A DNA stretch of 64,000 bases from Candidatus Rokuibacteriota bacterium (lineage in GTDB: Bacteria; Methylomirabilota; Methylomirabilia; Rokubacteriales; CSP1-6). The notes beneath the pieces are model-generated. The model was not told where the DNA came from, did not search any database, and worked only from the letters and a program-made list of their open reading frames with translations. Shown in pieces: positions 30,400 through 62,090 of the stretch (the stretch's first letter is position 1; every line of letters starts with the position of its first letter). The stretch covers positions 5,561-69,560 of the forward strand of contig VBPC01000272.1 of the NCBI GenBank assembly GCA_005887895.1. Reading direction: 5' to 3'. Position numbers and translations under genes: made by a program.

Positions 30400-33167
<2,768 letters not shown>

Positions 33168-33221
33168 TCGATGCGTCCTCCTGAGAAGGAGAGTCTACCG
33201 GAAGTGGTATGATCGCGCCAC

Positions 33222-34619
<1,398 letters not shown>

Positions 34620-34701
34620 CTCCCCGGAGGTCCTCCCACCGCCGCCTCGCTTGTCGTTCTTCCAACGTTTGCGATTCCGCAGGCTTGAGCCGGCGGAGAT
34701 C

Positions 34702-34716
34702 TGGCACTCTCGTTGC
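34702..34716 (+). promoter_or_regulatory. sigma54 (-24/-12) promoter
   Basis: TGGCAC-tctcg-TTGC is an exact match to TGGCAC-N5-TTGC. It lies 82 nt after the activator gene and 15 nt before ATG 34732. Confidence 0.7.
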
Positions 34717-34731
34717 CCTGTATGAAGCATC

Positions 34732-35136
34732 ATGAACACGCCGCGCCAGCGCCCGATCGAGCTGACCACCCCTCGCCGCCGCCTCAAGACCACACCGGCC
34801 GTCTCGCTGTTCCGCCCCGAGATCGTGCTCGCGACCTCGATCACCGCCGCGCCGGCCCGGCGCACGGTCATCCTGGCCGAGCCCGGGGCCAGGCCGGACG
34901 CGCTCCGCACGCAGCTCGGGACGGCGCAGTCCGTCCTGGCCGGGCTCGACGACGCCCGGCAGACGCTCGGGGCCGCGGCGGCCGACGCGCGGACGCGCGC
35001 GCAGGCAGCGGCGTCGACGCGCGAGCGCGTGTCGGCCACGATCGCCGCCTACCGGGCCGAAGGCGCCCTGGACGACGTACTGACCGGTGCCTGGCGTCAG
35101 GTGTCGGCATTGATGGAGGAGCGAGGACTGCGATGA
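34732..35136 (+). CDS. Hypothetical protein (134 aa), Ala/Arg-rich helical C-terminus
   Basis: GC3-rich frame immediately downstream of the sigma54 promoter. I recognise no family. Confidence 0.5.
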   Translation: MNTPRQRPIELTTPRRRLKTTPAVSLFRPEIVLATSITAAPARRTVILAEPGARPDALRTQLGTAQSVLAGLDDARQTLGAAAADARTRAQAAASTRERVSATIAAYRAEGALDDVLTGAWRQVSALMEERGLR

Positions 35137-35441
35137 ACACGATGAGCCCCGTTTCGAACGTGTACTACCTGGCGGCCTCGGCCCCGGCCCCCGAGCGCGC
35201 TCCGCGGCTGTCGCTGAGCCTGATCCTCCGTCTCCGCTTCATCTCGCTGTACTGGCGGCTGCGCATGACCGCCGCCGAGCTCCTCGACGTGCTGCGCCGC
35301 TTCGGCCGGCCGATGGGCGAGCCCGACCCGGCGTTCCTCGAGCAGCGCGCGGAGATCATCCTGGCGGCGGGCGCGCCGCGCGCGCTCGGCCCGGCGCGGG
35401 TGATCGATCTCGCCGAGGCGCGCACCCGACTCCGGGGATAG
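35133..35441 (+). CDS. Hypothetical protein (102 aa)
   Basis: There is an ATGA overlap with the previous ORF, and the frame is GC3-rich. I recognise no family. Confidence 0.5.
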   Translation: MNTMSPVSNVYYLAASAPAPERAPRLSLSLILRLRFISLYWRLRMTAAELLDVLRRFGRPMGEPDPAFLEQRAEIILAAGAPRALGPARVIDLAEARTRLRG

Positions 35442-35467
35442 AGCGGGGCGTGAGTTACTGATGAGAT

Positions 35468-35493
35468 GGGGGGAGCACTGCGTTGCTCCCCCC
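35468..35493 (+). terminator. Strong GC hairpin after the two-gene cassette (variant of the repeat family's first hairpin)
   Basis: ggggggagca pairs with tgctcccccc (10-bp stem, 6-nt loop) and is followed by aagcccccc as in the REP-like elements. There is no T-tract. Confidence 0.45.
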
Positions 35494-35649
35494 AAGCCCC
35501 CCACCGCTCGGATCGCGTAGCTTCCAGCCGACCTCGCTAGCTCTCGTTCCACGCAGTTCGCCCGTTCTCAGCGCTCAATTCACAGACGGAGGCGGTGACG
35601 CCTCGGCCTCGGCCCGCGCGCGCGTTCGGCCTCGCGCATGTCGCATGTG

Positions 35650-35678
35650 TTGACACGTGGCGGGGGGGTGCGTAGAAT
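35650..35678 (+). promoter_or_regulatory. Near-consensus sigma70 promoter of the Fur-family/rubrerythrin genes
   Basis: TTGACA (35650-35655), 17-nt spacer, TAGAAT (35673-35678). Confidence 0.65.
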
Positions 35679-35691
35679 CCGGGCGCCTAAT

Positions 35692-35706
35692 TGAGAATGA
35701 TTACTA
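35692..35706. promoter_or_regulatory. Fur/PerR-box-like operator
   Basis: TGAGAATGATTACTA resembles the 7-1-7 motif TGATAATNATTATCA, with 12 of 14 fixed positions matching. It is an AT-rich island just downstream of the -10 box. Confidence 0.5.
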
Positions 35707-35723
35707 AGAACGAGGGGCGGCGG

Positions 35724-36227
35724 ATGCGGCCGGGCGGCGGTGGGGGAGTGGCGCCGGTCGAGGTGTGGCGGGCGCGGGGCAAGCGGTTGACGCGGCCGCG
35801 GCGCATCATTCTCGACGTGGTGCGGGCCAGCGACGCCCATCCGTCGGCGCTCATGGTGTACCGGCAAGTGCGGCGCCGGCTGCCCCGGGTGAGCCTGGCC
35901 ACCGTCTATCGCAATCTCCGGATGCTGGCCGCCGAGGGCGTGCTGAGCGAGCGCGCCGACGCCGCCGGCACCCGCTTCGACGGCAACACGGCGCCGCACG
36001 ACCACTTCACGTGCGTGGCGTGCGGGCGCATCTACGACGTTCCGGCGCTGGCCGCGCCGCGCGTGCGGGCCCGCGTCGCGTCGCGCACGGGGTTCGAGGT
36101 CCTCTCGCAACGCATCGAGTTCTATGGCCGCTGCGGCGCCTGCCGTCGCGCCGCCGGCCCCACCCGAGCAAGGAGGAAACCATGGCAGGACGAAGCCTCA
36201 AGGGCACCAAGAGCCTCACGAACCTGA
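35724..36227 (+). CDS. Fur-family transcriptional regulator (PerR-like by context)
   Basis: LTRPRRIILDVV..., HPSALMVY, ATVYRNLRML, HDHFTCVACG and CGAC match Fur-family motifs. The start is uncertain (ATG 35724 has a GAGGGG Shine-Dalgarno; alternatives are 35691 and 35697). The 3' end overlaps the rubrerythrin start. Confidence 0.75.
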   Translation: MRPGGGGGVAPVEVWRARGKRLTRPRRIILDVVRASDAHPSALMVYRQVRRRLPRVSLATVYRNLRMLAAEGVLSERADAAGTRFDGNTAPHDHFTCVACGRIYDVPALAAPRVRARVASRTGFEVLSQRIEFYGRCGACRRAAGPTRARRKPWQDEASRAPRASRT

Positions 36228-36631
36228 AGGAGGCATTCGCCGGCGAGTCGCAGGCGAACCGCCGCTACCTGTACTTCGCGCGCGTCGCGGACATCGAGGG
36301 ATTCCCGGACATCGCGGGTCTCTTCAAGGACACCGCCGACGCCGAGACCGGCCACGCCTTCGGCCACCTCGACTTCCTCAAGGAGGTCGGCGATCCGGCG
36401 ACGGGCGAGCCGATCGGCAAGACCGAGATGAACCTCAAGGCCTCGGTGGCCGGCGAGACGTACGAGTACACGCAGATGTACCCCGGCATGGCCAAGACGG
36501 CGCGCGACGAGGGATTCGCCGAGCTCGCCGAATGGTTCGAGACGCTCGCCAAGGCCGAGAAGTCGCACGCCGGGCGCTTCAACAAAGGCCTCACGCAGAT
36601 TGCCGGCAAGGACCCGGCGGAGGCCATCTAG
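36182..36631 (+). CDS. Rubrerythrin-family diiron protein without a rubredoxin domain
   Basis: 149 aa. A GGAGGA Shine-Dalgarno precedes the ATG. ExxH-type ligand pairs ([17 protein letters not shown]) and [12 protein letters not shown] are present. Confidence 0.85.
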
Positions 36632-51007: not shown

Positions 51008-52501
51008 ATGAAAACGGCCGTCGCGATGTCCCTTTTGCTCGCCGTGGCGCTGCCGGCGTGGGCCCAGTCGGCGCCACCGGCCGCGCCCGGCGCCGCCAAG
51101 CCGGCAACGGCCGACAAGCGTCAGCCCGCCGCCAAGAGTCCCGGCCAGAAGATCGATGCCCGCGCGGTCCTCCAGGCGATGGAGGAGGCCTTCAGCGCGG
51201 TGGCGGACCGTGTCACCCCGGCGGTGGTCAACGTCAGCACGATCCCCAAGCGCACGCCCCCCGGCACGACCGACGACCCCGAACGATTCCGGGATTACTT
51301 CGGTGAAGAGTTCTACGACCGGTACTTCAAGCGGCGGCCGCGCGAGGAGCCTCGGGCCAGCGGCTCGGGCGTGCTGGTGGATCGGGCCGGATACATCTTG
51401 ACGAACAATCACGTCATCGAGAACGCTCAGGACATCACCGTGCGCCTCTCCGATGCGCGGAAGTTTCCGGCGACCCTGGTCGGGCGTGACCCGAAGACGG
51501 ACCTGGCCGTGCTGAAGGTCGACGCGCCGGGGCCGCTGCCGACGGCGGAGCTCGGCGACTCCGAGCGCCTTCGCGTGGGGCAGTGGGTCATCGCGATCGG
51601 CAATCCCTTCGGCCTCGATCGCACGGTCACCGTGGGCATCGTCTCCGCCACCGCCCGCAATCGCGTCGGCGTGACAACCTACGAGAACTTCATCCAGACC
51701 GACGCCTCGATCAATCCCGGCAACTCCGGCGGTCCGCTGCTGAACCTCGACGGCCGCGTCATCGGCATCAACACCGCGATCGTCGCCGCCGGCCAGGGCA
51801 TCGGCTTCTCGATCCCGATCAACGAGGCGAAGGTGGTGATGAGCCAGCTGATCGCGAACGGCCGAGTGGTGCGCGGCTGGCTCGGCGTCGCCATCCAGGA
51901 CGTCACCGACGAGCTGGCCTCGAGCTTCGGCGTGCGCGAGCGCGAGGGCGTCCTCGTGGCCGACGTGATGAAGGGCGGGCCCGCCGAGGTGGCCGGACTG
52001 CGTCCCGGCGACGTGATCGTCGAGCTCAACGGCAGCAAGATCCGCGAGGTCCCCGAGCTGCAGCGGCGCATCGCCAACGTCGCCCCCGGTCAGAGCGTCG
52101 CGATCGCCGTCGTGCGCGATCGCGCCACCCAGCGGCTCAAGGTCCGCGTGGGCGAGATGCCCAGCGAGGAGCCGCTGATCGCGTCCGTCGACGCCGGCCC
52201 CGAGGGATTCGGGCTGCAGGTCGAGCCGCTGCCGCCGGACGCCGCTGACCGGTTGAGCCTGCCCTTCAGCGAGGGGCTGCTGGTCACGGACGTGGCCGGC
52301 GGCGGGCCCGCCGACCGTGCCGGGCTCCGTCGCGGCGACGTCATCCTCGAGGTGGGCCGCCAGGTCGTGCACGACGCGCCGGCGCTGCAGCGCGCGCTGT
52401 CGGCCGTGCCGGCCGGGCGCTCGGTCCTCCTGTGGGTGCACCGGCCCGGCGGTGGCGGGCACAACCAGTACCTCGTGCTGGAGCGGGACGCCGGCCGATG
52501 A
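51008..52501 (+). CDS. HtrA/DegP-family periplasmic serine protease with two PDZ domains
   Basis: 497 aa with a signal peptide. The catalytic triad context is TNNHV, DLAVLKV and GNSGGPL. Confidence 0.9.
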   Translation: MKTAVAMSLLLAVALPAWAQSAPPAAPGAAKPATADKRQPAAKSPGQKIDARAVLQAMEEAFSAVADRVTPAVVNVSTIPKRTPPGTTDDPERFRDYFGEEFYDRYFKRRPREEPRASGSGVLVDRAGYILTNNHVIENAQDITVRLSDARKFPATLVGRDPKTDLAVLKVDAPGPLPTAELGDSERLRVGQWVIAIGNPFGLDRTVTVGIVSATARNRVGVTTYENFIQTDASINPGNSGGPLLNLDGRVIGINTAIVAAGQGIGFSIPINEAKVVMSQLIANGRVVRGWLGVAIQDVTDELASSFGVREREGVLVADVMKGGPAEVAGLRPGDVIVELNGSKIREVPELQRRIANVAPGQSVAIAVVRDRATQRLKVRVGEMPSEEPLIASVDAGPEGFGLQVEPLPPDAADRLSLPFSEGLLVTDVAGGGPADRAGLRRGDVILEVGRQVVHDAPALQRALSAVPAGRSVLLWVHRPGGGGHNQYLVLERDAGR

Positions 52502-53940
52502 TGGCCGCCGACCTGCTCGAGCCACCGACGCTCTCGCGGCGCGGTACCGTCCTCGTCGTCGACGACGAGGACGGCGTGCGCGCCTCCATCCGCGCGATCC
52601 TCGAGGGCCGGTGCGAGGTGCTGGAGGCCGAGACCGGCGCCGCCGCGCTCGAGGTGCTGCGGGCCCGGGACGTCGATCTCGTCATGCTCGATCAGCGGAT
52701 GCCCGGCGAGCCCGGCATCGACGTGCTGCCGCGCGTGAAGGCCGCCGACCCCTCGACGGTGGTCGTGCTGGCCACCGCCGTCCACGACGTGCGAACGGCC
52801 GTGGAGGCGCTCAAGCGCGGCGCCTACGACTACATCACCAAGCCGTTCGACGTGGACGACATCCTGATGCTGGTCGAGCGCGCGCTGGAGAAGCGCGCCC
52901 TCGAGCGCCAGGTGCTGTGCCTGCAGTCGGCGCTCACGCCGGCCGGCATCGAGACGCCGGACGGCTTCGAGGGACTGGTCGGCCGTCAGCCGGAGATGGT
53001 GCGCATCTACCAGCTCATCACCCAGATCGCGACCACGCCGACCACCGTGCTGATCACCGGCGAGAGCGGGACCGGCAAGGAGCTGGTGGCGCGGGCGATC
53101 CACCAGCGCAGCGATCGCGCCGGCCATCCGTTCGTGGCGGTCAACGTGGCGGCCATTCCCGAGACGCTGGTCGAGTCCGAGCTGTTCGGCCACGAGAAGG
53201 GCGCGTTCACCGGCGCCCACGCCCGCCGCCTCGGCAAGTTCGAGCTGGCCCAGGGCGGCACGATCTTCCTGGACGAGATCGGCTCGCTGCGCCTGGATCT
53301 GCAGACCAAGCTCCTGCGCGTGCTCCAGCAGCGCGAGGTGGAGCGGCTCGGCGGCAGCCGCGCGATCCCCGTCGACGTGCGCGTGCTGGCCGCCACCAAC
53401 GTCAACCTCCGGCAGGCCGTGCGCGACCGCGCCTTCCGCGATGATCTCTACTATCGCCTCAACGTGGTGCCGATCCACGTCCCCCCGCTGCGCGAGCGGC
53501 GCGAGGACATCGCCCGGCTGGTCGAGCACTTCGTGCGCAAGTTCGCCCGCGAGTGCCACCGCGACGTGCGCGGCGTCTCGGCCGGCGCCCTGGCGGCGCT
53601 GACCCGCTACGACTGGCCCGGCAACGTGCGCGAGCTGGAGAACGTGATCCAGCGCGCGGTGGTGCTGGCCCGCGCCGCCGTGCTGCACCTGCAGGACGTG
53701 CCGCTGGACGTGGCGATGCCGGAGACGGTCTCCCTGCTGGCCGAGGATGCGCTGCCGCTGCGGGAGGCGTGCGATCAGTTCGAGCGCCAGTACGTGGTAC
53801 GGACGCTGGAGCGCGCGCAGTGGAACGTGAGCCGGGCGGCGCGCCTGCTCGGCGTCCATCGCAATACCGTGCTGGTCAAGCTGGCCGCCTGGGGCGTGCA
53901 CCGTCCCGGCGCGTCGGAGGGAAGGAGCGCGACTCCGTGA
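52498..53940 (+). CDS. sigma54-dependent response regulator (NtrC family), second copy
   Basis: 480 aa with an ATGA overlap with htrA. VLVVDDEDG...LVMLDQRMPG, GESGTGKE, ESELFGHEKGAFTGA and a C-terminal HTH are present. Confidence 0.9.
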   Translation: MMAADLLEPPTLSRRGTVLVVDDEDGVRASIRAILEGRCEVLEAETGAAALEVLRARDVDLVMLDQRMPGEPGIDVLPRVKAADPSTVVVLATAVHDVRTAVEALKRGAYDYITKPFDVDDILMLVERALEKRALERQVLCLQSALTPAGIETPDGFEGLVGRQPEMVRIYQLITQIATTPTTVLITGESGTGKELVARAIHQRSDRAGHPFVAVNVAAIPETLVESELFGHEKGAFTGAHARRLGKFELAQGGTIFLDEIGSLRLDLQTKLLRVLQQREVERLGGSRAIPVDVRVLAATNVNLRQAVRDRAFRDDLYYRLNVVPIHVPPLRERREDIARLVEHFVRKFARECHRDVRGVSAGALAALTRYDWPGNVRELENVIQRAVVLARAAVLHLQDVPLDVAMPETVSLLAEDALPLREACDQFERQYVVRTLERAQWNVSRAARLLGVHRNTVLVKLAAWGVHRPGASEGRSATP

Positions 53941-62075: not shown

Positions 62076-62090
62076 GCAAGCGCGGTGCCA
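62076..62090 (-). promoter_or_regulatory. sigma54 (-24/-12) promoter, minus strand
   Basis: The plus strand reads GCAA-gcgcg-GTGCCA, so the minus strand reads TGGCAC-cgcgc-TTGC, an exact consensus. It lies about 70 nt upstream of ATG 62006. Confidence 0.7.

Follow-up and report, generated by a model that had tools for sequence, protein, structure and literature searches.

A conserved sigma-54 regulatory unit with two small orphan genes in soil Rokubacteria

The stretch of DNA analysed here (the window) is a 64 kb part of contig C31 of a Rokubacteria genome (G000, 5.5 Mb, 72% GC). Around position 34,700 it contains a sigma-54 promoter, located between the gene of an NtrC-type activator and two small overlapping open reading frames, ORF1 and ORF2. 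The locus was compared with 41 related genomes, which were searched for ORF1 at a threshold of E 0.01 or better, and with a set of 19 loci carrying the module, the window included, which are all distinct sequences and comprise metagenome contigs with divergent ORF2 relatives. The homologues derive from metagenome-assembled genomes of soil and groundwater labelled Candidatus Rokuibacteriota, Methylomirabilota or Rokubacteria. The features of the locus are the following (positions are those of the window; nt, nucleotides; aa, amino acids; pI, isoelectric point; SD, Shine-Dalgarno sequence).

33222..34619, plus strand: NtrC-type enhancer-binding response regulator with receiver domain (REC), AAA+ sigma-54 interaction domain and Fis-type helix-turn-helix (HTH)
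34612..34624, no strand: distal palindrome GGGACTGACTCCC, candidate activator site, overlapping the activator stop codon, centre at -84 from TGGCAC
34625..34637, no strand: proximal palindrome CGGAGGTCCTCCC, candidate activator site, centre 71 bp before TGGCAC and at about -96 from the predicted start
34651..34688, no strand: conserved spacer element TTGTCG-N6-CCAA ... ATTCCG-N4-CTTG, defined by alignment, with an invariant CAA and TTG 19 bp apart
34702-34716, plus strand: sigma-54 (-24/-12) promoter TGGCAC-N5-TTGC, here TGGCACTCTCGTTGC, supported by sequence and conservation
34732..35136, plus strand: ORF1, 134 aa, pI 11.4, without SD, leader predicted at about 2-7 nt
35123..35127, plus strand: SD of ORF2, GAGGA, 5 nt before its ATG and within the conserved EERGLR codons which end ORF1
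35133..35441, plus strand: ORF2, 102 aa, pI 11.2, ATGA overlap with ORF1
35467..35494, plus strand: GC-rich hairpin with an 11-bp stem after ORF2, without a U tract

Promoter, activator and upstream palindromes

The order of elements is the same in every locus of the set: activator gene, intergenic region, TGGCAY-N5-TTGC, an ATG 13-18 nt on, ORF1, ATGA and ORF2. The initial annotation had proposed a conservation check of this arrangement of activator plus cassette, and 19 distinct loci from several genera of Rokubacteria/Methylomirabilota retain it. ORF1 was found in 16 of the 41 related genomes; clear matches occur in 13 genomes besides G000, ten of the same genus and three of other genera of the family. 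Orthologues of the activator (70-86% identity) adjoin the cassette in every locus, and the genomes without an activator orthologue (G002, G018 and G029) are also without ORF1.

The promoter, described from the start as lying just past the activator gene, is present at this position. Exact matches to TGGCAC-N5-TTGC number two in the window, as against 0.08 expected from shuffles. TGGCAY-N5-TTGC is kept in 19 of 19 loci, while the 5-nt spacer and the flanking bases drift. Genome-wide, the N5 spacing is more than ten times commoner (61 sites) than N4 (5 sites) or N6 (4 sites). Absence of rpoN from the genome would have spoken against such a promoter; rpoN is present, with a Sigma54_DBD match of 207 bits at G000:C41:7745-8218 within a 544-aa open frame. 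Transcription is predicted to start at about 34726-34730. The second exact match in the window, TGGCACCGCGCTTGC, is on the minus strand at 62076-62090, and a GTG 18 nt on opens a 98-aa frame.

In a Pfam scan the activator matches Response_reg (1.9e-28), which bears out the receiver domain reported earlier, as well as Sigma54_activat (1.7e-67), AAA_lid_14 and HTH_8 (1.8e-11). Receiver and Walker motifs are intact, with Asp11/12 in the acidic pocket, Asp56 as phospho-acceptor and the loop GAFSGA, a variant of GAFTGA. In NCBIfam the activator scores best against AtoC, NtrC and ZraR, far under the equivalog cut-off in each case (417 bits for AtoC with a cut-off of 714, and the remaining matches likewise below theirs); it is therefore not an orthologue of any named regulator. 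The genome encodes about two dozen sigma-54 activators, a second one of which is present in the window (52432-53940, plus strand, Sigma54_activat at about 52975-53478).

A search for upstream activator sequences in 34560-34700 had been suggested, and inverted repeats were found at 34612-34637. A repeat search with 6-nt seeds overlooks palindromes with 5-bp arms such as these. In the alignment of the intergenic regions the consensus is GGGAG-N3-CTCCC, whose arms are conserved and whose 3-nt centre varies, without compensatory changes. The centre of the proximal palindrome is at -68 to -72 from TGGCAC in 19 of 19 loci, and that of the distal one 88-94 bp before TGGCAC in the 18 other loci. Counted from the predicted start, the pair is at about -96 and -116, a separation of some two helical turns. 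Sites near these positions and with this separation match the known enhancers of NtrC-type activators. With one mismatch or fewer allowed, the 64-kb window has no match besides these two palindromes, as against a chance expectation of 6, and nowhere else in the 5.5-Mb genome do two such sites occur within 40 bp of each other. Both are likely activator sites, as judged from position and conservation. GGGAG-N3-CTCCC is not known as the site of any described activator, although no search aimed at it was made. After the activator stop codon the window is without about 29 bp which the relatives have, and abutting palindromes are seen in G000 alone.

The composite of an exact palindrome, 55-85 nt and a sigma-54 promoter was found in 13 of the 41 genomes, 12 of which have a clear ORF1 match. 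In the thirteenth, G025, the match is at an unrelated gene, and reversed-pattern controls gave one match. The G025 site (L055, contig C205) precedes an SD-led gene of 170 aa from another family. No ORF was found within 120 nt of a further exact palindrome with sigma-54 promoter (L054, G003:C37:99536-99628), which could belong to a small RNA or to a long leader.

Between palindromes and promoter, the spacer element at 34651-34688 could be the site of a bending protein, the site of a second regulator or the terminator of the activator gene. RNAalifold gave no consensus structure for this spacer; a stem drawn by hand has marginal support, being 72.8% paired as against 68.2% in shuffles, a value which 16 of 500 shuffles reach. 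Rfam had no match in 33000-36300.

Predicted short leaders at sigma-54 promoters

The ATG of ORF1 at 34732 is 15 nt past TTGC, and the in-frame TGA at 34723-34725 leaves no room for a start further upstream. The gap between TTGC and ATG holds no GGAG, GAGG or AGGA, the ATG is conserved among the loci, and folding predictions show no structure at the mRNA 5' end.

The same layout is frequent in the genome. Downstream of the 61 TGGCAY-N5-TTGC sites of G000 an ATG is found at 13-18 nt in 22 cases, with a mode of 15, whereas scrambled-motif controls gave 1 of 39 and 1 of 21. A second mode at 26-29 nt past TTGC corresponds to SD-led genes. A coding signature is seen in the frame opened by 15 of the 22 close ATGs, and an SD-like tetramer is present in the gap of only two of the 22. 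Each of the 13 other genomes of the genus has 8-26 matches in the class at 13-18 nt, as compared with 1-7 at 1-6 nt and 1-8 at 41-46 nt. The excess extends to 24 related genomes and is weaker in more distant families. In Rokubacteria about a quarter to a third of the predicted sigma-54 promoters are located 13-18 nt before an SD-less ATG; the candidate kinase gene described below is just outside this class, at 18-19 nt.

In the usual sigma-54 geometry the C of the GC is at -12, and with this geometry the leaders would be about 2-7 nt long, including that of ORF1. Leaderless mRNAs are defined as having 5 nt or fewer between the start site and AUG (PMC12754779, citing Beck and Moll 2018). The initial annotation predicted a nearly leaderless, SD-less transcript; the 15-nt distance and the missing SD of ORF1 stand, and the layout turned out to be frequent at the sigma-54 promoters of this lineage and not a local peculiarity. 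Full-text literature searches, with screening of titles and abstracts, found no link of leaderless mRNA to sigma-54 or RpoN.

The two small genes and their proteins

ORF1 and ORF2 agree with their first description as coupled ORFs with an ATGA overlap and coding-like base composition. GC content at third codon positions is 0.91 and 0.94, respectively, as against 0.62 and 0.53 at second positions, which is the pattern of real genes. An alternative ORF of 242 aa (34713-35441) was rejected, because its codon-position GC is not coding-like upstream of 35133. The transcript had been predicted to have no SD; this is true for ORF1 only, and ORF2 has GAGGA at 35123-35127. The GCGATGA junction is retained in nearly all loci. 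The translational coupling suggests that the two proteins act together, most likely as a pair and possibly in one complex.

A lack of conservation at the protein level had been named as a ground for refutation, and both ORFs are conserved as proteins. Third-position substitutions predominate and concentrate in residues 26-134 of ORF1 and in the terminal motifs of ORF2, which indicates purifying selection; the fast-evolving parts are residues 1-25 of ORF1 and the linker 58-85 of ORF2. Profile searches returned 234 (ORF1) and 202 (ORF2) sequence clusters, every one annotated as hypothetical, and an exhaustive profile scan of 1.84 billion representatives for ORF2 yielded no more than 77 relatives, nearly all of about 100 aa.

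AlphaFold models were built on alignments of 42 and 48 sequences. In ORF1 residues 1-55 are basic and disordered and carry the conserved motifs (L)WRPEIVLA and LAEPxxRPEA, while residues 56-130 form an antiparallel helical hairpin (56-92 and 96-130) with a predicted local distance difference test score (pLDDT) above 90. In ORF2 the motif NVYYL near the N-terminus is followed by a long helix rich in Arg and Trp at 28-57 (WWRLR, pLDDT about 95) and by a short helix; the C-terminus carries the motif P-A-R-V-I-D-F-x-x-A-R-x-R-L-R, with a C-terminal helix after a strand-like PARVIDF. Neither protein has a hydrophobic or transmembrane segment, a signal peptide or a conserved Cys or His, and no metal or redox motif was seen in either. 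From these features ORF1 and ORF2 are predicted to be small, soluble, non-enzymatic, basic helical binding proteins. The profile and structure searches called for by the initial annotation, which recognised no family, gave nothing significant for either protein; in Foldseek against the Protein Data Bank (PDB) the best E-value for ORF1 was 1.2, to generic hairpins, and ORF2 had 0 matches.

Several candidate assignments were rejected. The label DUF2252 family carried by a few ORF1 homologues at JGI is not supported by a Pfam scan. Tat/Sec export of ORF1, suggested by RRRLK and a semi-hydrophobic run, is contradicted by the Arg and Glu in this run and by its peak mean hydrophobicity of 0.38. A phosphotransfer hairpin (Hpt, DHp or Spo0B-like) and an encapsulated ferritin were discounted for ORF1, in which His, Asp and Glu form no conserved pattern. 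For a protein of the PspA/IM30 or ZraP/CpxP/Spy type ORF1 lacks any Pfam or NCBIfam match, any fold match better than the Foldseek value given above, the LTXXQ motif and a signal peptide. The C-terminal RVIDFxxARxRL of ORF2 is too short, and too close to the very end, for an AbrB or ribbon-helix-helix domain, and has no profile match.

Downstream of ORF2 the strong hairpin first placed at 35468-35493 was found, with its stem at 35467-35494. The 85-nt stretch around it (35436-35520) has a folding energy of -38.9 kcal/mol (z = -2.2). Several relatives also have a strong hairpin past ORF2, either this one or another, that of locus L024 with a TTTTGTTTT tail, and the hairpin probably ends the two-gene transcript. 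The next gene, a perR-like Fur gene, has a near-consensus sigma-70 promoter, TTGACA-17-TAGAAT (11 of 12 positions, window 35650-35678), with TAGAAT or TACAAT in the relatives. Most loci show the same series of genes: a divergent uvrA, the activator, ORF1, ORF2, the perR-like Fur gene, rubrerythrin, a CCG Fe-S protein, DUF3501 and a cytochrome c.

Some loci depart from this scheme. A gene for a stand-alone receiver of 117-121 aa starts 9-18 nt after ORF2 in L014/L028 (L014, after 3695; L028:4300-4653) and in L029 (L029:2396-2761), and its presence in the operon favours a signalling role. The database protein P0300 (205 aa) reads as an N-terminus of ORF2 fused to this receiver, which is probably a frame shift or gene-calling artefact. 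At L027:2241-3314 the activator is apparently without a receiver (357 aa, AAA+ and HTH only) and is preceded by an epimerase gene; this contig is labelled Planctomycetota, probably by a binning error, since its proteins and motifs are of Rokubacteria type.

Candidate kinase, proposed mechanism and alternatives

The activator had been called an orphan on the ground that no kinase gene is nearby. There is no HATPase_c domain anywhere on contig C31, and the genome holds 78 matches to this domain. The word orphan is less apt for the genome as a whole: a genome-wide scan located a candidate kinase with the same enhancer motif on contig C335.

G000:C335:20390-23317, minus strand: soluble hybrid histidine kinase of 976 aa, GAF-GAF-PAS-PAS-HisKA-HATPase_c-REC
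G000:C335:20390-23437 (= L037:1891-4938), minus strand: kinase gene with its upstream region (promoter, palindrome and gene)

Upstream of the kinase gene an exact palindrome, GGGAGAAACTCCC, is centred at -80 from the sigma-54 promoter TGGCACCGGCCTTGC, and the ATG follows 19 nt on. Orthologues of the kinase (75-80% identity) were found in the three closest relatives only (G004, G009 and G013), where the palindrome at -77, the sigma-54 promoter and a start codon 18-19 nt past TTGC are all kept. A shared rare enhancer motif is the usual mark of one regulon. Since this motif is common to both, the C335 kinase is likely to be the partner of the activator and to be under positive feedback.

Overall the locus appears to be a real, conserved and mostly ordinary sigma-54 unit, whose regulatory architecture is well supported by the sequence comparisons. 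We think it probable that it is a self-contained regulatory unit of one soil Rokubacteria family, which would work in the following way. A kinase encoded elsewhere, for which the GAF-GAF-PAS-PAS hybrid kinase of C335 is the best candidate, would phosphorylate the receiver, and dimers of the activator would bind the two GGGAG-N3-CTCCC palindromes starting at the activator's own stop codon and assemble there. The assembled activator would spend ATP to open the complex of the sigma-54 holoenzyme at TGGCAC-N5-TTGC. Transcription would begin a few bases before the ATG of ORF1, so that ORF1 would be translated from an essentially leaderless, SD-free mRNA, and ORF2 by means of the SD within the last codons of ORF1 and of the ATGA in which stop and start codon overlap. 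The hairpin would terminate the transcript and the perR-rubrerythrin genes would run from their own sigma-70 promoter. With the C335 kinase as sensor, the pathway would raise its own sensor.

What ORF1 and ORF2 do within the unit is a matter of less confidence. Our first choice, put forward tentatively, is that they are signalling adaptors or feedback modulators which bind and tune components of the same pathway. This role is preferred because the cassette is strictly linked to the activator gene, a receiver has been recruited into the operon in some loci, the kinase is apparently co-regulated and catalytic features are lacking. We would give about even chances to the broader view that sigma-54 transcription in Rokubacteria routinely yields leaderless or nearly leaderless mRNAs, and that ORF1 and ORF2 are the output or the modulators of an autoregulated GAF/PAS kinase pathway.

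A number of observations weigh against the regulatory unit as drawn. The kinase is absent from the more distant genomes and is therefore not a universal partner. The palindromes of the window abut, with 13 bp from centre to centre as compared with 18-23 bp in the 18 other loci, and each carries one mismatch. G007 and G010 have lost the cassette and retain an intact activator (82-85% identity), with no other composite site found; in G007 (L032, G007:C66) there is a clean deletion of enhancer, promoter and both ORFs, and in G010 (L033, G010:C14) promoter and ORFs are deleted and both palindromes are kept, abutting the -35 box of the perR promoter. Survival of the activator in these genomes argues against the cassette as its only purpose, and the activator may have other targets or roles. 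The pair of small genes is not obligate, ORF2 being deleted in G001. Finally, ORF1 and ORF2 have no match in Pfam, NCBIfam, PADLOC, PHROGs or PDB sequences, and no activity was identified for them.

With the same wiring, ORF1 and ORF2 could alternatively be stress-protective proteins, binding nucleic acid or protein, which belong to the peroxide-type neighbourhood of uvrA, perR-rubrerythrin and Fe-S-DUF3501. This is our second choice and a doubtful reading, although several data fit it: the gene order from uvrA to cytochrome c is kept in most loci, rubrerythrin directly follows ORF2 in G006, both proteins are strongly basic with a pI above 11, and the palindromes adjoin the perR sigma-70 promoter in G010. 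PexR of Myxococcus is a precedent for an enhancer-binding protein governing peroxide defence via dyad repeats (PMC12754779). However, perR is driven by its own promoter, the proteins carry no conserved Cys, His, metal or redox motif, and at L030 and L031 perR, rubrerythrin and the Fe-S gene are absent nearby and yet the link between activator and cassette remains.

It is improbable that the palindromes are elements of the transcript, either short hairpins or the terminator of the activator gene, with TTGTCG...CCAA / ATTCCG...CTTG as the true enhancer. The repeats do begin at or just past the activator stop codon and persist in G010 after loss of the cassette, and the spacer element is conserved as well. 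Against this, the arms are conserved in sequence with a variable centre and no compensatory changes, a 5-bp stem without a U tract is a poor terminator, and the positions suit the known enhancers mentioned above. Moreover, in four genomes the palindrome recurs at -77 to -80 of the unlinked kinase promoter, where it does not follow a gene end in this way and where the spacer boxes are not evident. That the promoter match is unused, and the two ORFs are expressed with a longer leader by read-through from the activator gene (82 bp from stop codon to promoter, without a canonical terminator) or from an unrecognised sigma-70 promoter, is very improbable, in view of the conservation of all TGGCAY and TTGC positions amid drifting flanks and spacer in 19 loci, the conserved distance of 13-18 nt to the ATG, the genome-wide preference for N5 and the lack of any sigma-70-like match upstream of ORF1.

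The proposed sigma-54 unit resembles those of NtrC at glnAp2 and of ZraR at zraP, and the NtrC/AtoC/ZraR units in general, in the REC-AAA+-HTH_8 architecture with a -24/-12 promoter, in the two dyad-symmetric sites about 100 and 120 bp upstream of the predicted start, in the small target gene beside the regulator and in the probably autoregulated sensor. It differs from them by equivalog scores under the cut-offs, by the lack of an adjacent kinase gene and by the predicted near-absence of a leader; unlike ZraP, ORF1 and ORF2 have neither signal peptide nor LTXXQ motif and match no family. The PspF-PspA and HrpS-HrpV-HrpG systems similarly have small, non-enzymatic, mostly helical proteins beside a sigma-54 activator and induced by it, which is what we infer here. 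As a two-protein set comparable to HrpV/HrpG, ORF1 and ORF2 would fit a modulator/anti-modulator pair, a likeness of logic only. In distinction to PspF-PspA and HrpS, there is no match to PspA_IM30 or another family and no significant fold match in the PDB, and a receiver domain is present in the activator, PspF and HrpS being without a regulatory domain.

PexR of Myxococcus xanthus is an enhancer-binding protein which uses interrupted palindromes (CACCG-N6-CGGTG) to activate sigma-54 promoters in peroxide defence, controls ahpC and katB, detects H2O2 by a metal-binding GAF domain of its own and is able to damp a nearby promoter of the housekeeping sigma factor as well (PMC12754779). The present unit is similar in adjoining perR-rubrerythrin, with palindromes which in G010 abut the perR promoter, and differs in its receiver domain, its palindrome and its candidate targets, which are two orphan proteins and a kinase. 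In Deinococcus-Thermus, Actinobacteria and other groups, leaderless mRNAs arise from housekeeping promoters of sigma-70 type whose -10 box is adjacent to the ORF (PMC12340547). The pattern described here shares with them the fixed and very short spacing of a promoter element to an SD-less AUG and a high frequency throughout the genome, but it is found at enhancer-dependent sigma-54 promoters.

The switch is of a textbook kind. Our searches of libraries and papers brought up no description of three aspects: the enhancer motif together with a tiny regulon and a candidate kinase, the lineage-wide location of sigma-54 promoters beside SD-less start codons, and the two orphan protein families of ORF1 and ORF2. 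These families, each with more than 200 sequence clusters and so far seen only in Rokubacteria-type metagenomes, combine a clear expression signal with a lack of known fold relatives. If confirmed, the site GGGAG-N3-CTCCC and its tiny regulon would be defined for a single sigma-54 activator, out of about two dozen, of an uncultured phylum, a rare and testable assignment of regulator, site, target and sensor. Sigma-54 promoters placed to give leaderless mRNAs would likewise, if confirmed, be the rule in this lineage and not the exception. Tight off/on control by sigma-54 would then be wired directly to translation initiation which depends on the 5' end, and the combination of sigma-54 with leaderless transcripts would bear on how ribosomes recognise such mRNAs and on the annotation of start codons.

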